A stretch of DNA of 34,947 nucleotides from a virus: UHGV virus genome UHGV-0108399; one strand, given 5' to 3'. Shown in pieces: positions 4,803 to 13,270 of the stretch; within the stretch, counting starts at the first letter, position 1; the number at the start of each line of letters is the position of its first letter. The notes under the pieces are model-generated. The model was not told the origin of the DNA and did no database searches. It saw nothing but the letters and a program-made list of their open reading frames with translations. A program made the position numbers and the translations under genes.

Positions 4803-5309
4803 TTAAATTGCGTGAATAGCGTGACGAGGGAAGGGGAGAGTTACTGGTGCAAAGGGTATATCGTCGTCAAAATCCATCGGAGGTTCGTTGTGTTGTGCTG
4901 GTGATGATTGCTGCTGTGGCTTCTGTGATTGCCTGCTGGCTGCTTGTTGTTTGCTGTCGCCAATGCCGCCAAGCATTTGCATCACGCCATTAATTCCGAC
5001 ATGAACCTCGGTTGTGTAACGGTCTTGCCCTGACTGGTCTTTCCACTTTCTGGTTCTCAGCATTCCCTCGAAATAAATCTGATCACCTTTTTTCACATAC
5101 TGCCCCACGACCTCAGCCAGTTTCCCGGATACAGCAACACGATGCCATTCAGTCAATTCCTTTTGCTCGCCAGTATTTTTATCTCGCCATTGTTCTGACG
5201 TGGCTATTGTCAGGTTAGCGAACGCTGTTCCTGATGGTGAGTATCGAACTTCCGGGTCTTGTCCTACCCGACCAAGGATAATCACCTTATTTACGCCTCT
5301 GCTTGCCAT
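4803..5309 (-). CDS. ssb: Single-stranded DNA-binding protein (SSB) with 15-aa extension after the DDDIPF tip
   Basis: OB-fold N-terminus ([36 protein letters not shown]), Q/S-rich linker, conserved [11 protein letters not shown] followed by [15 protein letters not shown] before the stop. Confidence 0.85.
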
Positions 5310-6017
5310 TTATGCCGCCTGTTTTAGTTCGTTAACTCTGATGTTCATTACCTGAACGCATTTAGCCTGCGCCTCCTCGTTGCCAGCCATTAATTGCCAG
5401 TCACGCTGATAACGCTCGATGAGTTTTTTCTTGTCAGTTTCTGTTGACGCATAATCGCTGAAGTCTTTCAGGATTTGTTCGCAGTCAACCGATGGAGATT
5501 TCTGGTTGGTATTTTCTGGTGATGGTTTGTTATCTGATGCTGGGATTGCCCATCCCGGCAGCGATGGAGGGAGCCAGCAAAATCCTGTTCCATCCTTCAG
5601 TTTTGCCCTGTGCCACCCCTGCTTTTTATCGAGAGATGTTTGTGCGAAACCTTCCTCAAGGTTATACAGATACCGACCGATTCCCCACTGAACGGCAGCA
5701 CGCTTCATTGCACCTGAACGACCACCTTTGACGGCTTCTACCTGCGTGTTTTCAGCAGCATCCCATTTGGTTACCCATTCGGAATCAATCTTGATTGATA
5801 TGCCGCATTCAACTCCGCCGTTGTTGGGAATATCGCGGTATTCATTGCGCCATCCTGCTTTGCCGCAAACATCGTCCAGGCGTTTCATGATTGCCCTGTT
5901 CGTGACATAAGCCAGCACCATAGCCCACACCTTTCCATCGCGTGTTTTACCGCTTTGCTGTATTCGCCATTCGATATCTTCAGGGCTGAATGGCTCATCG
6001 AATTTGTTCAAATCCAT
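5310..6017 (-). CDS. Rad52/22-family single-strand annealing recombinase (SSAP)
   Basis: 235 aa; conserved core (VECGISIKIDSEWVTKWDAAEN ... AMKRAAVQWGIGRYLYNL) resembles the Rad52/22 phage recombinase family; sits between kil/cIII and ssb where lambda has bet and P22 has erf. Confidence 0.65.
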   Translation of the reverse strand: MDLNKFDEPFSPEDIEWRIQQSGKTRDGKVWAMVLAYVTNRAIMKRLDDVCGKAGWRNEYRDIPNNGGVECGISIKIDSEWVTKWDAAENTQVEAVKGGRSGAMKRAAVQWGIGRYLYNLEEGFAQTSLDKKQGWHRAKLKDGTGFCWLPPSLPGWAIPASDNKPSPENTNQKSPSVDCEQILKDFSDYASTETDKKKLIERYQRDWQLMAGNEEAQAKCVQVMNIRVNELKQAA

Positions 6018-7158: not shown

Positions 7159-7740
7159 ATGAACAACTCATGGTGGCAGGAACTAATGCATTTTTTCCTG
7201 CAAGGAATGACACTTAAACAGTTGATTCATATGCTAATCATCCTGATCATATTGATTATTGTTATGCCGGTAAGCGTAAAAGAATGGATAAACCTGCATA
7301 ATCCAGAAATCCTTCCTCATTACTGGATGTATTACATCCTGTTGTTTTGCGTTAGCTATGTGCTTAACGGCGTTGTTAATTCCGCTTATCACGCTGTGAC
7401 TGAAAGAATTGAGGTATTCGCTGCTCAGAAGCGCAAATCTAAAGAAGAGAAATACGTGCAAGATTTGTTTGATTCGTTAACTCTTGGAGAAAGAGCGTAT
7501 TTGGCACTCGCTGTAGTCGCTAATAACCAGCTACAAACGGAAAAGGGAAGCCCTGAAGCAATCTCATTGCTCGAAAAAGGGCTTCTTATTCGGATACCTT
7601 CTGCTACTGGATATCCTGAAATCGACCGTTTTGTTATCCCAGAACGCTATAGAAATGAGTGCTACATTAGGTTTGCTGGGAAGAAAGACAGTCTTATGGA
7701 TGAACTTATCGCTCAGGATAAGCACGGCAAAAACAAGTAA
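7159..7740 (+). CDS. sieB: Superinfection exclusion protein B (SieB)
   Basis: 193 aa; N-terminal MNNSWWQELMHFFLQGMTLKQLIHMLIILIIL... with transmembrane segments, matching lambda SieB as I recall it. Confidence 0.8.
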   Translation: MNNSWWQELMHFFLQGMTLKQLIHMLIILIILIIVMPVSVKEWINLHNPEILPHYWMYYILLFCVSYVLNGVVNSAYHAVTERIEVFAAQKRKSKEEKYVQDLFDSLTLGERAYLALAVVANNQLQTEKGSPEAISLLEKGLLIRIPSATGYPEIDRFVIPERYRNECYIRFAGKKDSLMDELIAQDKHGKNK

Positions 7741-9999: not shown

Positions 10000-10146
10000 A
10001 TGACAAAACAACTCAGTCCTTACCAGGACAAAATTCACAAACACATACTACGTGATCGCTTCCTGTCCAGCTTCAAGCAGCCTGGTCGATTCCGGTCTGA
10101 GTTGGAAAAAGTGAAGCTGATGCAGAAGGAGAAAGGTCATGAGTAA
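10000..10146 (+). CDS. Small hypothetical protein (48 aa) between cII and O
   Basis: Hand-translated ORF ([48 protein letters not shown]) with AGGAG RBS 6 nt upstream; 3' end overlaps the start of the O-like gene. Confidence 0.3.
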
Positions 10147-10999
10147 TATTGCAACCGTAACACATTTAAGGCCTTCACAACGGCCTGTGGAGCGTCGTGT
10201 GGCAGAAGTTGAAGATGGTTATACCCGTCTTGCAAATGCCCTGTATGAAGAGCTTATCGGCGCAGATTTAACGAAAAATCAGAGCAAGGTTGCCCACGCC
10301 ATATGCCGTAAAACATACGGCTACGGTAAAAAGATGGATCGCATCTCTGATAGTCAGTTAGCTCAAATTACCAGGCTGCCAAGACAGAAGGTAAACAAGG
10401 CCAAGAATGAGCTTATCGCGATGAAGGTAATCCTTCGCGAAGGCCAGCAAATCGGGCCTAACAAGAACATCGAGGAATGGCAAATCGAAGGGTGTCACTA
10501 CTCTGGTGATAATGTCACTGCATTGGTGACAAAAAGTGTCACCAAAACGGTGACAGCGCTGTCACCAAAACAGGGACACACAAAAGAAACTATTACAAAA
10601 GAAAAAAGAAATAATAAAAACACTATGTCCGAAAGTGTTCGGACGGAGTGTGAAAAATCATCTGACCGTCACGAAGAAACCGACAAGGCATTCGAGGAAA
10701 TATTCTGGTGTGCAGGCATGCGGAAAGCCGGGAAGAAAAACGCAGCTTCAGCATTCAGAACACAGTTCAGGGAATGGCGTAAAACTACCAGGGGTACGGC
10801 AAGCGAGTTTGCCACGATGCTGGCAGAAGACATCGCATGCAGGAATGGTAAGCAGTTCGGATTCGACAGGTTGTTACCATCGAGCTACCTGAACGGTCAG
10901 CGCTGGAACGACGAAAAGCCAGAAACCATTCAACCACAATCCAAACCATCATCCGCAATCACCGTATCGAAAACTGGCTACGTGTTTTTCGACAGGTGA
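10139..10999 (+). CDS. O: Replication initiator, lambda O-like N-terminal domain
   Basis: N-terminal ~110 aa ([56 protein letters not shown] ... GPNKNIEEW) resembles the lambda O N-domain; C-terminal half is unrelated to lambda O. Confidence 0.8.
10504..10620 (+). repeat. Putative replication origin: GGTGAC / GTCACC iteron palindromes followed by an A-rich segment, inside the O-like gene
   Basis: GGTGATAATGTCAC, GGTGACAAAAAGTGTCACC and GGTGACAGCGCTGTCACC in tandem, then AAAAGAAACTATTACAAAAGAAAAAAGAAATAATAAAAA; architecture matches ori-lambda. Confidence 0.55.
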
Positions 11000-11106
11000 A
11001 CCATGAAATCAAAAATCAAATCGTTACTGGCCGCTGGTTATAACCACGGCTGGTTAAGTATTTCGTTTGTCGATTTCTGGTTTAAAAATCTCAATCTGAG
11101 GGAATC

Positions 11107-12987
11107 ATGACGCCAAGTGAACTTAGCGACCTGCTTTGGGCGCAGGTTGACAGGGTGGCTCCGCACCTGTTGCCAAACGGCAAGAAAGAGGGGCATGAGT
11201 GGGTTGCCGGTAACGTCAACGGTGACAAGGGAAACAGCCTTAAGGTCAACCTTAGCGGCAAGAAAAAATGGGCTGATTTCGCTGAGGGAGACGGCGGTGA
11301 CATGCTTGATTTGTGGATGGCATGTCGTGGAATTAACCTGCATCAGGCTATGCAGGAAGCGAAAGCCTTTCTCGGAATCAAGGATGACGATCACCATTTC
11401 GATGCCAAACGTGAGAAGAAATTCTCCAGACCTGACCGCAAGAAAATCGCCCGCTACGTTACCAGAACAGAATCCCATCTTGAGTACCTGCAATCGCGTG
11501 GCATATCGCCAGAAGTCGTAAAGCGCTACGAGGTTGTCAGCGGCAAGGTGTGGAATGGAGAACGAGAACTTGATGCACTGGTGCTTCCGTACAAACGCGA
11601 TGGTGAGTTGTTGCAGGTCAAGCGAATCAGCACTGAGCGCCCGGACGGGAAGAAAGTCATTATGGCAGAAGGTGATTGCGAACCTTGTCTGTTCGGATGG
11701 CAGGCTCTGGACGCTGGCGTGAGGGCGGTTGTACTTTGCGAAGGCGAAATTGATTGTATGAGCTATGCGCAATACGGCATCTCGGCGTTATCCGTGCCGT
11801 TTGGTGGCGGGAAAGGCGCTAAGCAACAGTGGATTGAGTTTGAGTATCACAACCTCGACAGGTTTGAGGAAATATTCATCTCGATGGATGTTGATGATGT
11901 TGGTCGTGAAGCCGCAAGGGAAATCGCAAGCCGACTCGGTGAACATCGTTGCCGTCTTGTTACTCTGCCGTACAAAGACATCAACGAATGCCTGATGAAC
12001 GGTGTTACCGAGGATGAAATCTGGCAGTACATCGGCACGGCATCCTACTTCGATCCTGAAGAACTCTACAGCGCGCGAGAGTTTTACCAGGACACTATCA
12101 ACGCTTTCTACGGCAAGCAGCAGTATCTGTTTAATCCACCGTGGGAATCTCTGGCAGATAAATTCCAGTTCCGTGAGGCAGAGTTGACGCTGGTCAATGG
12201 TGTGAACGGTCACGGAAAAACGGAGGTTGTCGGGCATATGGCACTTGAGGCAATGCGTCAGGGTGTGAAGACGTGCATCGCGTCACTTGAGCTGAAGCCT
12301 GGTATTCTCCTTAAGCGACTTACCCGTCAGGCAACGTGCTGCAAGATGCCGCCAGTGCTGGAAATTGACTCTGCATTTAAATTTTATGACGAAAGACTCT
12401 GGGTGTTTGGCCTGACCGGAACGGCGAAAGCCGACAGGCTGATCGAAATATTCGACTACGCTCGCCGCCGATACGGCATCCAGTTATTCATCATCGACAG
12501 CCTGATGAAATGCGGCATAGGTGACGATGATTATAACGGGCAGAAAGCATTTGTTGACTCGATTTGCGACTTCAAAAACAAAACAAACTCCCACGTCATT
12601 CTCGTTACTCACTCGCGAAAAGGAGACAGCGAAGAAAAACCAACCGGGAAAATGGACGTAAAAGGCTCTGGAGCGATAACAGACCTGACAGACAACCTTT
12701 TCATCATCTGGCGTAACAAGGCTCGCGAGAGAGCGTTACAGAGAGTTCAGAGTGGTGAAAAGATGTCAGAGAAGGACGAACAGCTACTGGCATCTCCGGC
12801 ATCTGTTTTGATGCTTGAAAAACAACGTAACGGCGAAGGTTGGGAAGGTGGCGTCCCGTTGTTCCTTGACGAGCAATCGCACCAGTTCCTGCAACTTGAA
12901 TCAGGATCGCCATATAGCTACATCGCCAATATGCCGAAATCGGAATATGACGAGGCGTGGCGACAGGAAAACGTGACGGAGTATTAA
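11107..12987 (+). CDS. Bifunctional primase-helicase (DnaG-like TOPRIM + SF4 DnaB/T7 gp4-like helicase)
   Basis: 626 aa; TOPRIM motifs (VVLCEGEIDCMSYAQ; ISMDVDDVGREAA); helicase Walker A NGVNGHGKTE and Walker B LFIIDSLMK; N-terminal region looks like a cysteine-poor relic of a primase zinc-binding domain. Confidence 0.8.
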   Translation: MTPSELSDLLWAQVDRVAPHLLPNGKKEGHEWVAGNVNGDKGNSLKVNLSGKKKWADFAEGDGGDMLDLWMACRGINLHQAMQEAKAFLGIKDDDHHFDAKREKKFSRPDRKKIARYVTRTESHLEYLQSRGISPEVVKRYEVVSGKVWNGERELDALVLPYKRDGELLQVKRISTERPDGKKVIMAEGDCEPCLFGWQALDAGVRAVVLCEGEIDCMSYAQYGISALSVPFGGGKGAKQQWIEFEYHNLDRFEEIFISMDVDDVGREAAREIASRLGEHRCRLVTLPYKDINECLMNGVTEDEIWQYIGTASYFDPEELYSAREFYQDTINAFYGKQQYLFNPPWESLADKFQFREAELTLVNGVNGHGKTEVVGHMALEAMRQGVKTCIASLELKPGILLKRLTRQATCCKMPPVLEIDSAFKFYDERLWVFGLTGTAKADRLIEIFDYARRRYGIQLFIIDSLMKCGIGDDDYNGQKAFVDSICDFKNKTNSHVILVTHSRKGDSEEKPTGKMDVKGSGAITDLTDNLFIIWRNKARERALQRVQSGEKMSEKDEQLLASPASVLMLEKQRNGEGWEGGVPLFLDEQSHQFLQLESGSPYSYIANMPKSEYDEAWRQENVTEY

Positions 12988-13063: not shown

Positions 13064-13270
13064 GTGGCTGAGTTAATTTTCTCTGCATTGAGGATTCTCG
13101 GTGCTATGTGGATGGTGGTGACGTTCATTGTGGTTGCCAGCAGTTTTATCCGGTTGGTGGGTGAAGGTAAAGACATGGTGGGTGTGCTTTTCGGTAGCAT
13201 TCTCATGTGGGTGATTATCGGTGTTGCGCCTGTCGCTGTAGCAAAAATGGCGTGGCGTTTTGTGAGTTGA
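13064..13270 (+). CDS. Small hydrophobic membrane protein (68 aa, two predicted TM helices, GTG start)
   Basis: GGGGGAGGG RBS 7 nt before GTG; sequence almost entirely hydrophobic (ILGAMWMVVTFIVVASSF ... VLFGSILMWVIIGVAPVAVA). Confidence 0.45.
   Translation: MAELIFSALRILGAMWMVVTFIVVASSFIRLVGEGKDMVGVLFGSILMWVIIGVAPVAVAKMAWRFVS

Follow-up and report, generated by a model that had tools for sequence, protein, structure and literature searches.

How is replication initiated and primed in a phage whose lambda O-like initiator is followed by a primase-helicase instead of P? The question arises from positions 10139-12987 of UHGV virus genome UHGV-0108399, analysed over its whole stretch of 34,947 nt (the window). 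A sequence-only reading of this DNA had proposed that the two genes form a replication module with host DnaB/DnaG-independent priming. In our view the locus is quite probably a replication module of the ES18/mEp043/Sf101 type, located in the early-right region of a P22-like/lambdoid temperate phage and working through the mechanism set out below. Both ORFs were recovered at the stated positions on the + strand; the features of the module are collected in Table 1.

Table 1. Features of the replication module, in window coordinates.
Feature	Position	Strand	Basis or remark
Initiator gene, lambda O-like, 286 aa, ES18 gp59 homologue	10139-10999	+	ORF, AAGGAG Shine-Dalgarno upstream
Initiator N-terminal origin-binding domain, residues 20-114	10196-10480	+	Phage_rep_O and TIGR01610 matches
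Four 19-bp internally palindromic iterons, TGTCAC-N7-GTGACA	10493-10578	.	Start-to-start spacing 20, 24, 23 bp
A-rich stretch, presumed DNA-unwinding element	10579-10620	.	Adjoins iterons; 71% A, 83% A+T
Initiator C-half, residues 176-286: conserved helical core, Pro/Gln-rich linker, conserved tail	10664-10996	+	phrog_33384
35-aa ORF, ES18 gp60 homologue, overlaps primase-helicase start (ATGA)	11003-11110	+	phrog_21848 E 4e-25
Bifunctional primase-helicase gene, 626 aa, ES18 gp61 homologue, T7 gp4/Twinkle type	11107-12987	+	phrog_239 E 2e-171
Cysteine-free zinc-binding-domain-like fold, residues about 20-92	11164-11382	+	
TOPRIM catalytic domain, residues 207-298	11725-12000	+	Acidic residues E212, D261, D263, D291; Toprim_2
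SF4 (DnaB/gp4-type) helicase domain, residues 355-594	12169-12888	+	AAA_25 and DnaB_C matches; T7 gp4 alignment

The arrangement of an initiator next to a primase-helicase is already known and is not new. P22-like phages carry three types of replication module, of which the ES18 type is one (PMC10307801). In the GenBank annotation of ES18, which covers the gp59-gp60-gp61 module, gp59 is described as lambda-O-like, gp61 as a "putative primase/helicase" similar to T7 gene 4, and the origin as "similar to lambda ori"; the finding of this module thus adds little, its annotation dating back to the ES18 genome record. Gene order in the window is that of ES18 gp59/gp60/gp61: an initiator with an internal origin and the same C-terminal half (C-half), a 35-aa ORF and a 626-aa primase-helicase, located between cII and the nin genes. 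The same type of module is found in E. coli phage mEp043, Shigella phage Sf101 and Salmonella phages SEN22, epsilon34 and g341c. At the DNA level it shares 99% identity with mEp043 and Sf101, which, like ES18, are represented by complete phage genome records, each with a named host. The module is an ordinary replication cassette of ES18/mEp043/Sf101-type temperate phages. Among 80 viral contigs carrying a window-type C-half, three types of N-domain were observed; the primase-helicase lay downstream in 79, the remaining contig ending at that point, and lambda P was found in none of the 80.

The N-terminal part of the initiator belongs to the lambda O family, as had been suggested. Pfam PF04492 (Phage_rep_O) matched residues 20-114 with 128.8 bits (cutoff 28.7, E 1.1e-37) and TIGR01610 scored 105.4 bits (cutoff 45.5), both above the curated cutoffs. 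Residues 1-157 are 49% identical to lambda O, and the initiator is 69% identical to ES18 gp59. The predicted origin, composed of four iterons and an A-rich stretch, lies within the initiator's own coding sequence, in agreement with the earlier description of in-gene iterons followed by A-rich DNA. The iterons occupy positions 10493-10511, 10513-10531, 10537-10555 and 10560-10578. Allowing up to two mismatches, the window has 6 occurrences of TGTCAC-N7-GTGACA where 1.57 are expected, a count reached in 0 of 100 shuffles, and all four occurrences with at most one mismatch fall inside the 86-bp cluster. The spacing is the same for the iterons of lambda (39034, 39054, 39078 and 39101) and of ES18. 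The 42 nt that adjoin the cluster have the highest A content of all 42-nt stretches in the window; in lambda ori, an AT-rich stretch is placed likewise relative to the iterons. The module therefore resembles lambda in its O N-domain family, its four in-gene iterons, the adjacent AT-rich stretch and its position after cII. The N-domain of ES18 gp59 is much closer to lambda O than that of the window and goes with lambda-type iterons (ATCCCTCAAAACGAGGGA), whereas the window N-domain and iteron type is that of mEp043 and Sf101.

Beyond residue 157, no significant BLAST similarity was detected between the initiator and lambda O. PHROG assignments of the two C-halves are disjoint (277, 2357, 391, 2514, 9773 and 4880 for lambda O; 33384, 270, 678, 9327 and 9474 for the window), and hhalign gave a probability of 0.2% when one was compared with the other. 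The C-half is thus unlike the part of lambda O that recruits P, as the sequence-only reading had stated; its AlphaFold2 model was poor (pLDDT 55). Also unlike lambda, the module has no P homologue, and its next large gene encodes a primase-helicase and not a loader of host DnaB. The C-half is near-identical in the window initiator, ES18 gp59 and the O protein of phage phi24B, whereas their N-domains differ: one C-half is joined to three N-domains with three iteron sets, and the same primase-helicase comes next each time.

Domain and structure-database searches agreed that the large downstream gene encodes a fusion of TOPRIM and SF4 helicase domains of the T7 gp4 type, which bears out the initial assignment. 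Toprim_2 scored 47.1 bits (cutoff 22.1, E 3e-12), and residues E212, D261, D263 and D291 align to E157, D207, D209 and D237 of T7 gp4. In the helicase part we located a Walker A motif (GVNGHGKT, 365-372), a Walker B motif (FIIDSL, 461-466), VTHSRK (500-505), KGSGAI (519-524) and an arginine-finger motif (KQRNG, 572-576); AAA_25 scored 28.0 bits, just over its cutoff of 27, and DnaB_C 23.8 bits, under its cutoff of 27. Every SF4 motif is conserved, H3 and H4 included, and the helicase is contiguous with the primase. The best relatives of solved structure were T7 gp4 (E 2.7e-23, in a single alignment of residues 191-539) and Twinkle. The protein, 94% identical to ES18 gp61, shares with T7 gp4 and Twinkle an N-terminal DnaG-type primase, with zinc-binding-domain fold and TOPRIM, and a C-terminal SF4 helicase; identity to T7 gp4 is 26% over 371 residues covering TOPRIM and helicase, with the catalytic motifs conserved. 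The bacterial DnaG equivalog TIGR01391 reached 37.9 bits where its cutoff is 283.6; the protein is a homologue of DnaG in fold and primase core, not a DnaG orthologue. Searches on both proteins, which had been proposed as a check, thus recovered the expected domains in the primase-helicase and gave the initiator no P-binding C-terminus. The C-terminal tail of the primase-helicase (...DEAWRQENVTEY) is acidic/aromatic and recalls the tails of gp4 and SSB, a parallel that we considered and rejected: family C-termini are net acidic in 52% and carry an aromatic residue among the last three positions in 40 of 112, so that an acidic tail such as that of T7 gp4 is not conserved across the family.

On these grounds we propose the following mechanism. 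The lambda-O-like N-domain of the initiator would bind the four iterons in its own gene and form an O-some-like complex, which would destabilise the adjoining A-rich stretch. The C-half, its C-terminal tail or both would recruit the phage's own hexameric primase-helicase of the T7 gp4 type. If it behaves like gp4, the enzyme would load itself on single-stranded DNA and unwind it in the 5'-3' direction, and its TOPRIM domain would lay RNA primers. The phage itself would provide initiator, helicase, primase and SSB, a gene for the latter being present in the window (4803-5309, minus strand). An unsystematic look through the window revealed no polymerase, and the phage presumably relies on the host Pol III holoenzyme. 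In contrast to T7 gp4, the enzyme belongs to a temperate phage and would have to work with a host polymerase. The analysis itself shows which domains are present and that they are intact, how the origin is laid out, which fold the cysteine-free N-domain has, and that C-half and primase-helicase are inherited jointly. What we infer is that initiator and helicase touch each other, that the helicase loads itself, that the protein primes, and that DnaB, DnaC and DnaG can be dispensed with; for priming independent of host DnaB and DnaG, as first proposed, gene content makes the inference reasonable. No biochemical or genetic test of an ES18-type module was found in the searchable literature.

The N-terminus of the primase bears directly on this mechanism. 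It was described at the outset as having the shape of a zinc-binding domain without the cysteines, and indeed the Cys4 zinc ribbon is absent, all zinc ligands being missing (Zn_ribbon_DnaG scored 13.3 bits, below its cutoff of 24.9, and the CHC2 zinc finger was not recovered), while the fold is DnaG-like, nearer to that of bacterial DnaG than to that of T7. In T7 gp4 the zinc ligands are needed for template-directed priming, and their loss here leaves room for a weakened or differently working primase. The protein might then be a helicase only, its primase part having degenerated to a relic that no longer primes, as in animal Twinkle, with primers supplied by host DnaG or by transcripts. We regard this as unlikely, since the four acidic residues of TOPRIM are conserved, the first three within motifs that a consensus built from 73 diverse relatives retains. 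The strong conservation of the N-domain itself (S44 invariant; G35, G39, G42, W55, D57, G64 and D65 at 90% or more) also argues for a retained function. Moreover, DnaG is normally recruited through the N-domain of DnaB, which the window helicase does not possess. We tentatively suggest, as one possible reading, that the cysteine-free domain may be a working, metal-independent version of the zinc-binding domain that still picks priming sites and hands over primers, with a conserved Gly/Ser/Asp network of G35, S44 and D57 in place of the zinc site. Such a domain would then be shared by a large clade of primase-helicases from temperate phages, comprising 410 clusters (50% identity, E below 1e-30). 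A non-exhaustive literature search returned no description of a metal-independent primase zinc-binding domain.

The recruiting role of the C-half can also be questioned. It might instead have a general role in initiation, for example by oligomerising, by binding ssDNA or by contacting a host factor, and the primase-helicase would then reach the opened origin alone or via the product of the 35-aa ORF. Homologues of the helical core occur at 37-44% identity in the initiators of Pseudomonas phage Skulduggery, where a DnaC-like loader follows, and of Vibrio phage D59, where the next gene is small and has no known function; the core is therefore not specific to the primase-helicase, and the idea that it acts as a primase-helicase-specific adaptor is weakened. 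Conversely, distant primase-helicases adjoin initiators with other C-termini, without the helical core. A narrow HMM of the C-half had no match upstream of distant primase-helicases, and scans of viral contigs with the distant relatives P0183 and P0190 found nothing. The 35-aa ORF is also conserved in position (79 of 80 related viral loci), including a diverged copy at the same place in LMessi; in a substitution-pattern test it showed only 4 differences from ES18. Against this reading, three independent initiator types have their mosaic breakpoint at the origin, within the initiator gene, and not between the two genes, so that the C-half stays with the primase-helicase as the C-half of lambda O stays with P. 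Furthermore, the conserved C-terminal tail is confined to initiators partnered with a primase-helicase: those of the window type carry it, and Fraca, LMessi and protein P0165 have a diverged version. The pairing persists in Fraca and LMessi, where identity is about 55% in the C-half and, for the LMessi primase-helicase, 61%. Initiator-type genes also lie directly upstream of primase-helicase relatives at 31-43% identity. The C-half and the primase-helicase are inherited jointly, a pattern partly confounded by their being neighbours. We find a C-half without a helicase-recruiting role improbable, and favour recruitment through the C-half, its tail or both. That the module is a non-functional remnant of a decayed prophage could be suspected from its spread in E. 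coli chromosomes, the region being matched wholly or in part in 2001 of 5426 complete genomes. This appears most improbable given that both large ORFs are intact and preceded by good ribosome-binding sites, that the DNA is almost that of the mEp043 and Sf101 phage genomes, and that the remainder of the window looks like a complete phage genome, running from integrase to morphogenesis-sized late genes.

Phage-encoded helicases are found in other lambdoid modules. P22 gp12, which Wickner reportedly described in 1984 as a helicase of the DnaB type that has no primase domain and works with host DnaG, differs from the window enzyme, in which primase and helicase are fused. P22 gene 18/gene 12 form a lambdoid module with the phage's own SF4 helicase and no loader for host DnaB (PMC8022706, PMC10307801). 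In the Stx phages phi24B and Min27, the proteins named "O" and "P" share their initiator C-half and primase-helicase with the window (about 97-98% identity), phi24B "P" reaching 968 aa owing to an intein (PMC3430580). The N-domain and iterons of phi24B (GGGGTGGGGCAGGAGCTGCCC) are unrelated to lambda O. One C-half and one primase-helicase, found with three origin-binding domains and iteron sets that are unrelated to each other, form a clean and useful natural domain-swap series. It illustrates how recognition of the origin and delivery of the helicase divide the replication specificity of lambdoid phages between them. Whether priming proceeds without zinc ligands, and which part of the initiator contacts the helicase, bear on whether phi24B and Min27 depend on DnaB and DnaG. 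The module is widespread in prophages of Enterobacterales, Stx phages included.

The replication module (10139-12987, + strand) is bounded exactly by the start codon of a 286-aa initiator ORF and the stop codon of a 626-aa ORF. In the initiator, residues 20-114 matched the Pfam family Phage_rep_O with 128.8 bits (cutoff 28.7), TIGR01610 was matched too, and BLASTP aligned residues 1-157 to lambda O at 49% identity, with no significant lambda O match past residue 157. The gene carries four 19-bp iterons, each an internal palindrome, spaced by 20, 24 and 23 bp start-to-start, exactly as in ES18 and as the annotated lambda iterons (39034, 39054, 39078, 39101). Allowing up to two mismatches, the window contained 6 occurrences of the iteron pattern where 1.57 were expected, and 0/100 shuffles reached that count of 6; allowing up to one, the four hits all fell in the 10493-10578 cluster. 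The A-rich stretch 3' of them is the highest-A 42-mer of the whole window. A further iteron-like site, with two mismatches and inside the primase-helicase gene towards its 5' end, is probably fortuitous: the expectation for the whole window is 1.6 sites of this quality. Pfam gave no match for the C-half of the initiator (residues 176-286), and its PHROGs (33384, 270, 678, 9327, 9474) share none with those of the lambda O C-half (277, 2357, 391, 2514, 9773, 4880). Profile-profile comparison of the two C-halves returned a probability of 0.2% (E 0.27), the window-side profile being shallow (Neff 1.6). The sequence-only reading had described a lambda O-like N-domain and in-gene iterons followed by an A-rich stretch, which proved correct and well beyond chance, and a C-half unlike the P-recruiting half of lambda O, a difference that holds at these three sensitivity levels.

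Features of the replication module and its surroundings
Feature	Position	Strand	Remarks
386-aa ORF	left end of window, left arm	-	position where an integrase would sit; candidate by position
SSB	4803-5309	-	phrog_44, E 2e-66
Erf-like annealing protein	5310-6017	-	phrog_1097
phrog_1301 gene	7159-7740	+	superinfection-exclusion family; description mentions SieB
Initiator	10139-10999	+	286 aa; ES18 gp59 homologue
Iteron TGTCACTACTCTGGTGATA	start 10493		19 bp
Iteron TGTCACTGCATTGGTGACA	start 10513		19 bp
Iteron TGTCACCAAAACGGTGACA	start 10537		19 bp
Iteron TGTCACCAAAACAGGGACA	start 10560		19 bp
A-rich stretch	10579-10620		42 nt; 71% A, 83% A+T
35-aa ORF MKSKIKSLLAAGYNHGWLSISFVDFWFKNLNLRES	11003-11110	+	ES18 gp60 homologue, phrog_21848
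Primase-helicase	11107-12987	+	626 aa; ES18 gp61 homologue
Iteron-like site GGTAACGTCAACGGTGACA	11209-11227	+	2 mismatches
68-aa ORF	13064-13270	+	phrog_1165; ES18 gp62 position

The 626-aa protein was assigned to phrog_239 ('DNA primase/helicase', E 2e-171); in Pfam it matched Toprim_2 (E 3e-12), with AAA_25 slightly over and DnaB_C slightly under the cutoff. Its best solved-structure match was T7 gp4 (E 2.7e-23), in a single alignment of residues 191-539 that spans TOPRIM and helicase, and Twinkle was also among the best (E 6.5e-14). The gp4 TOPRIM metal ligands E157, D207, D209 and D237 align with E212, D261, D263 and D291. Helicase motifs were seen as well (Walker A GVNGHGKT, Walker B FIIDSL, VTHSRK, KGSGAI and the arginine-finger KQRNG), several of them kept in a consensus drawn from 73 diverse relatives. 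Upstream of TOPRIM, residues 26-92 matched Pfam Zn_ribbon_DnaG weakly (E 0.076, below threshold) and exactly in register, and residues 26-143 aligned with positions 27-155 of TIGR01391 (dnaG). A search of residues 1-319 against 1.84 billion representative proteins returned 6057 relatives at E ≤0.001 (410 at E ≤1e-30), and we aligned the window protein with 122 representatives of full length, whose identity to it is about 35-60%. In these 123 sequences the N-domain is strongly conserved, with S44 invariant and G35, G39, G42, W55, D57, G64 and D65 present in at least 90%. The zinc ligands of E. coli DnaG (C40, H43, C61, C64) correspond to G35, N38, D57 and E60; position 38 is variable, position 60 is mostly T, S or G, cysteine occurs at position 35 or 57 in 0/123, and 49/123 have no cysteine anywhere in residues 25-70. 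AlphaFold2 modelled residues 1-105 confidently from 74 sequences (pLDDT 90.2). Both the fusion of a TOPRIM primase to an SF4 helicase and the zinc-binding-domain shape lacking its cysteines, as first read from the DNA, are thus upheld, the former by agreement of Pfam, PHROGs, structure matches and motifs, the latter by the in-register DnaG matches, the alignment and the model.

This cysteine-free domain is a trait of the whole clade, not of this phage alone. In T7 gp4, template-directed priming requires the zinc-binding domain. Animal Twinkle is reported to be without primase activity (PMC3610141). Given an intact TOPRIM site and the high conservation of the zinc-free domain, our tentative preference for the window protein is an enzyme that does prime, with a recognition domain that works without metal; this reading is plausible but short of probable. 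A helicase-only protein is unlikely.

The window initiator, ES18 gp59 and phi24B O share an essentially identical C-half beginning just 3' of the origin, behind N-domains of a diverged lambda-O type, the lambda type and an unrelated winged-helix type, respectively. Each type has its own iterons and the same primase-helicase next, so that the three form a natural domain-swap series, which fits the classical split in which the N-domain would read the origin and the C-half handle helicase delivery. Across viral contigs carrying the C-half, the three types numbered 71, 7 and 1; the primase-helicase lay downstream in 79/80, the remaining contig ending 53 nt past the match, and lambda P was found in 0 of 80. 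This joint inheritance is partly linkage, the two genes being neighbours. AlphaFold2 placed three helices at residues about 176-234 of the initiator (unreliable, pLDDT 55), and a conserved C-terminal tail follows a Pro/Gln-rich linker. At 37-44% identity, the helical core also occurred in initiators with other downstream neighbours: a DnaC-like loader (Pseudomonas phage Skulduggery, L169 2587-4301), a 174-aa protein of no assigned function (Vibrio phage D59, L168 2626-3862) or a stretch without annotated gene (Vibrio phage PVA1). Conversely, primase-helicases 31-43% identical to that of the window had directly upstream initiator-type proteins with quite different C-termini. The pairing was retained at intermediate divergence only in Fraca and LMessi (C-half about 55%, LMessi primase-helicase 61%). 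The core is thus a domain of initiators in general rather than a primase-helicase-specific adaptor; specificity for the enzyme, if any, may reside in fast-evolving surfaces or in the C-terminal tail.

On the model of lambda and T7, the initiator is proposed to melt the A-rich stretch and bring in the primase-helicase, which would load itself and synthesise primers. DNA synthesis would fall to host Pol III, proposed because no polymerase gene was noticed in a non-systematic look through the window. We infer the initiator-helicase contact, self-loading, priming and DnaB/DnaG independence alike, and the literature searched yielded no experimental study of an ES18-type module. Besides initiator, helicase and primase, the phage supplies its own SSB. 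Between initiator and primase-helicase, overlapping the start codon of the latter, the 35-aa ORF was found in 79/80 related loci and, as a diverged copy (MKTILKRLLVAGYNRGLLREEFVTMCFIKFDLRSV), at the same position in phage LMessi, which suggests a real small gene of the module. In 5/80 viral loci (L033, L043, L047, L062, L067), about 490 nt are inserted between this ORF and the primase-helicase gene; the insert contains, by eye, a candidate HNH homing endonuclease (GYLRVTL, VHRLVAQLF, VNHINGDKSDN).

This gene arrangement is common and has been described before. PMC10307801 counts it among three types of replication module in P22-like phages. The 3.1-kb region shares 99.1% identity with mEp043, 98.9% with Sf101 and 98.4% with vB_EcoP-720R6; 395 phage records match it partially, and 2001/5426 complete E. 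coli genomes match part or all of it, 173 carrying at least 80%. In the ES18 record, gp59 is labelled 'similar to phage lambda gpO', a rep_origin is given as 'similar to lambda ori', and gp61, 94% identical to the window enzyme, appears under 'putative primase/helicase; similar to phage T7 gene 4'. The 'P' of phi24B/Min27 is the same enzyme with an intein, which the window copy does not have; a 2012 paper described a TOPRIM domain and a gp4-type helicase domain in this 'P' (PMC3430580). The sole mildly new angle is the zinc-free primase domain across the clade. Some copies of this primase-helicase take up about 2.9-3.1 kb rather than 1.9 kb (viral loci L003 1996-4902, L009, L014, L077); in phi24B 'P' (L003; 968 aa) the extra length is the intein (PMC3430580).

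As a whole, the window represents a temperate phage or prophage of the P22-like/lambdoid kind. Its left arm also encodes, on the minus strand, an N-like antiterminator and a cI-like repressor; the right arm continues from cro- and cII-sized ORFs through the module to a NinB-sized ORF, placed as NinB in ES18 and lambda, and the late genes. The 68-aa ORF directly 3' of the primase-helicase is hydrophobic by eye. The phrog_1301 gene, in the early-left region, has the N-like antiterminator gene on one side and ORFs further left on the other.
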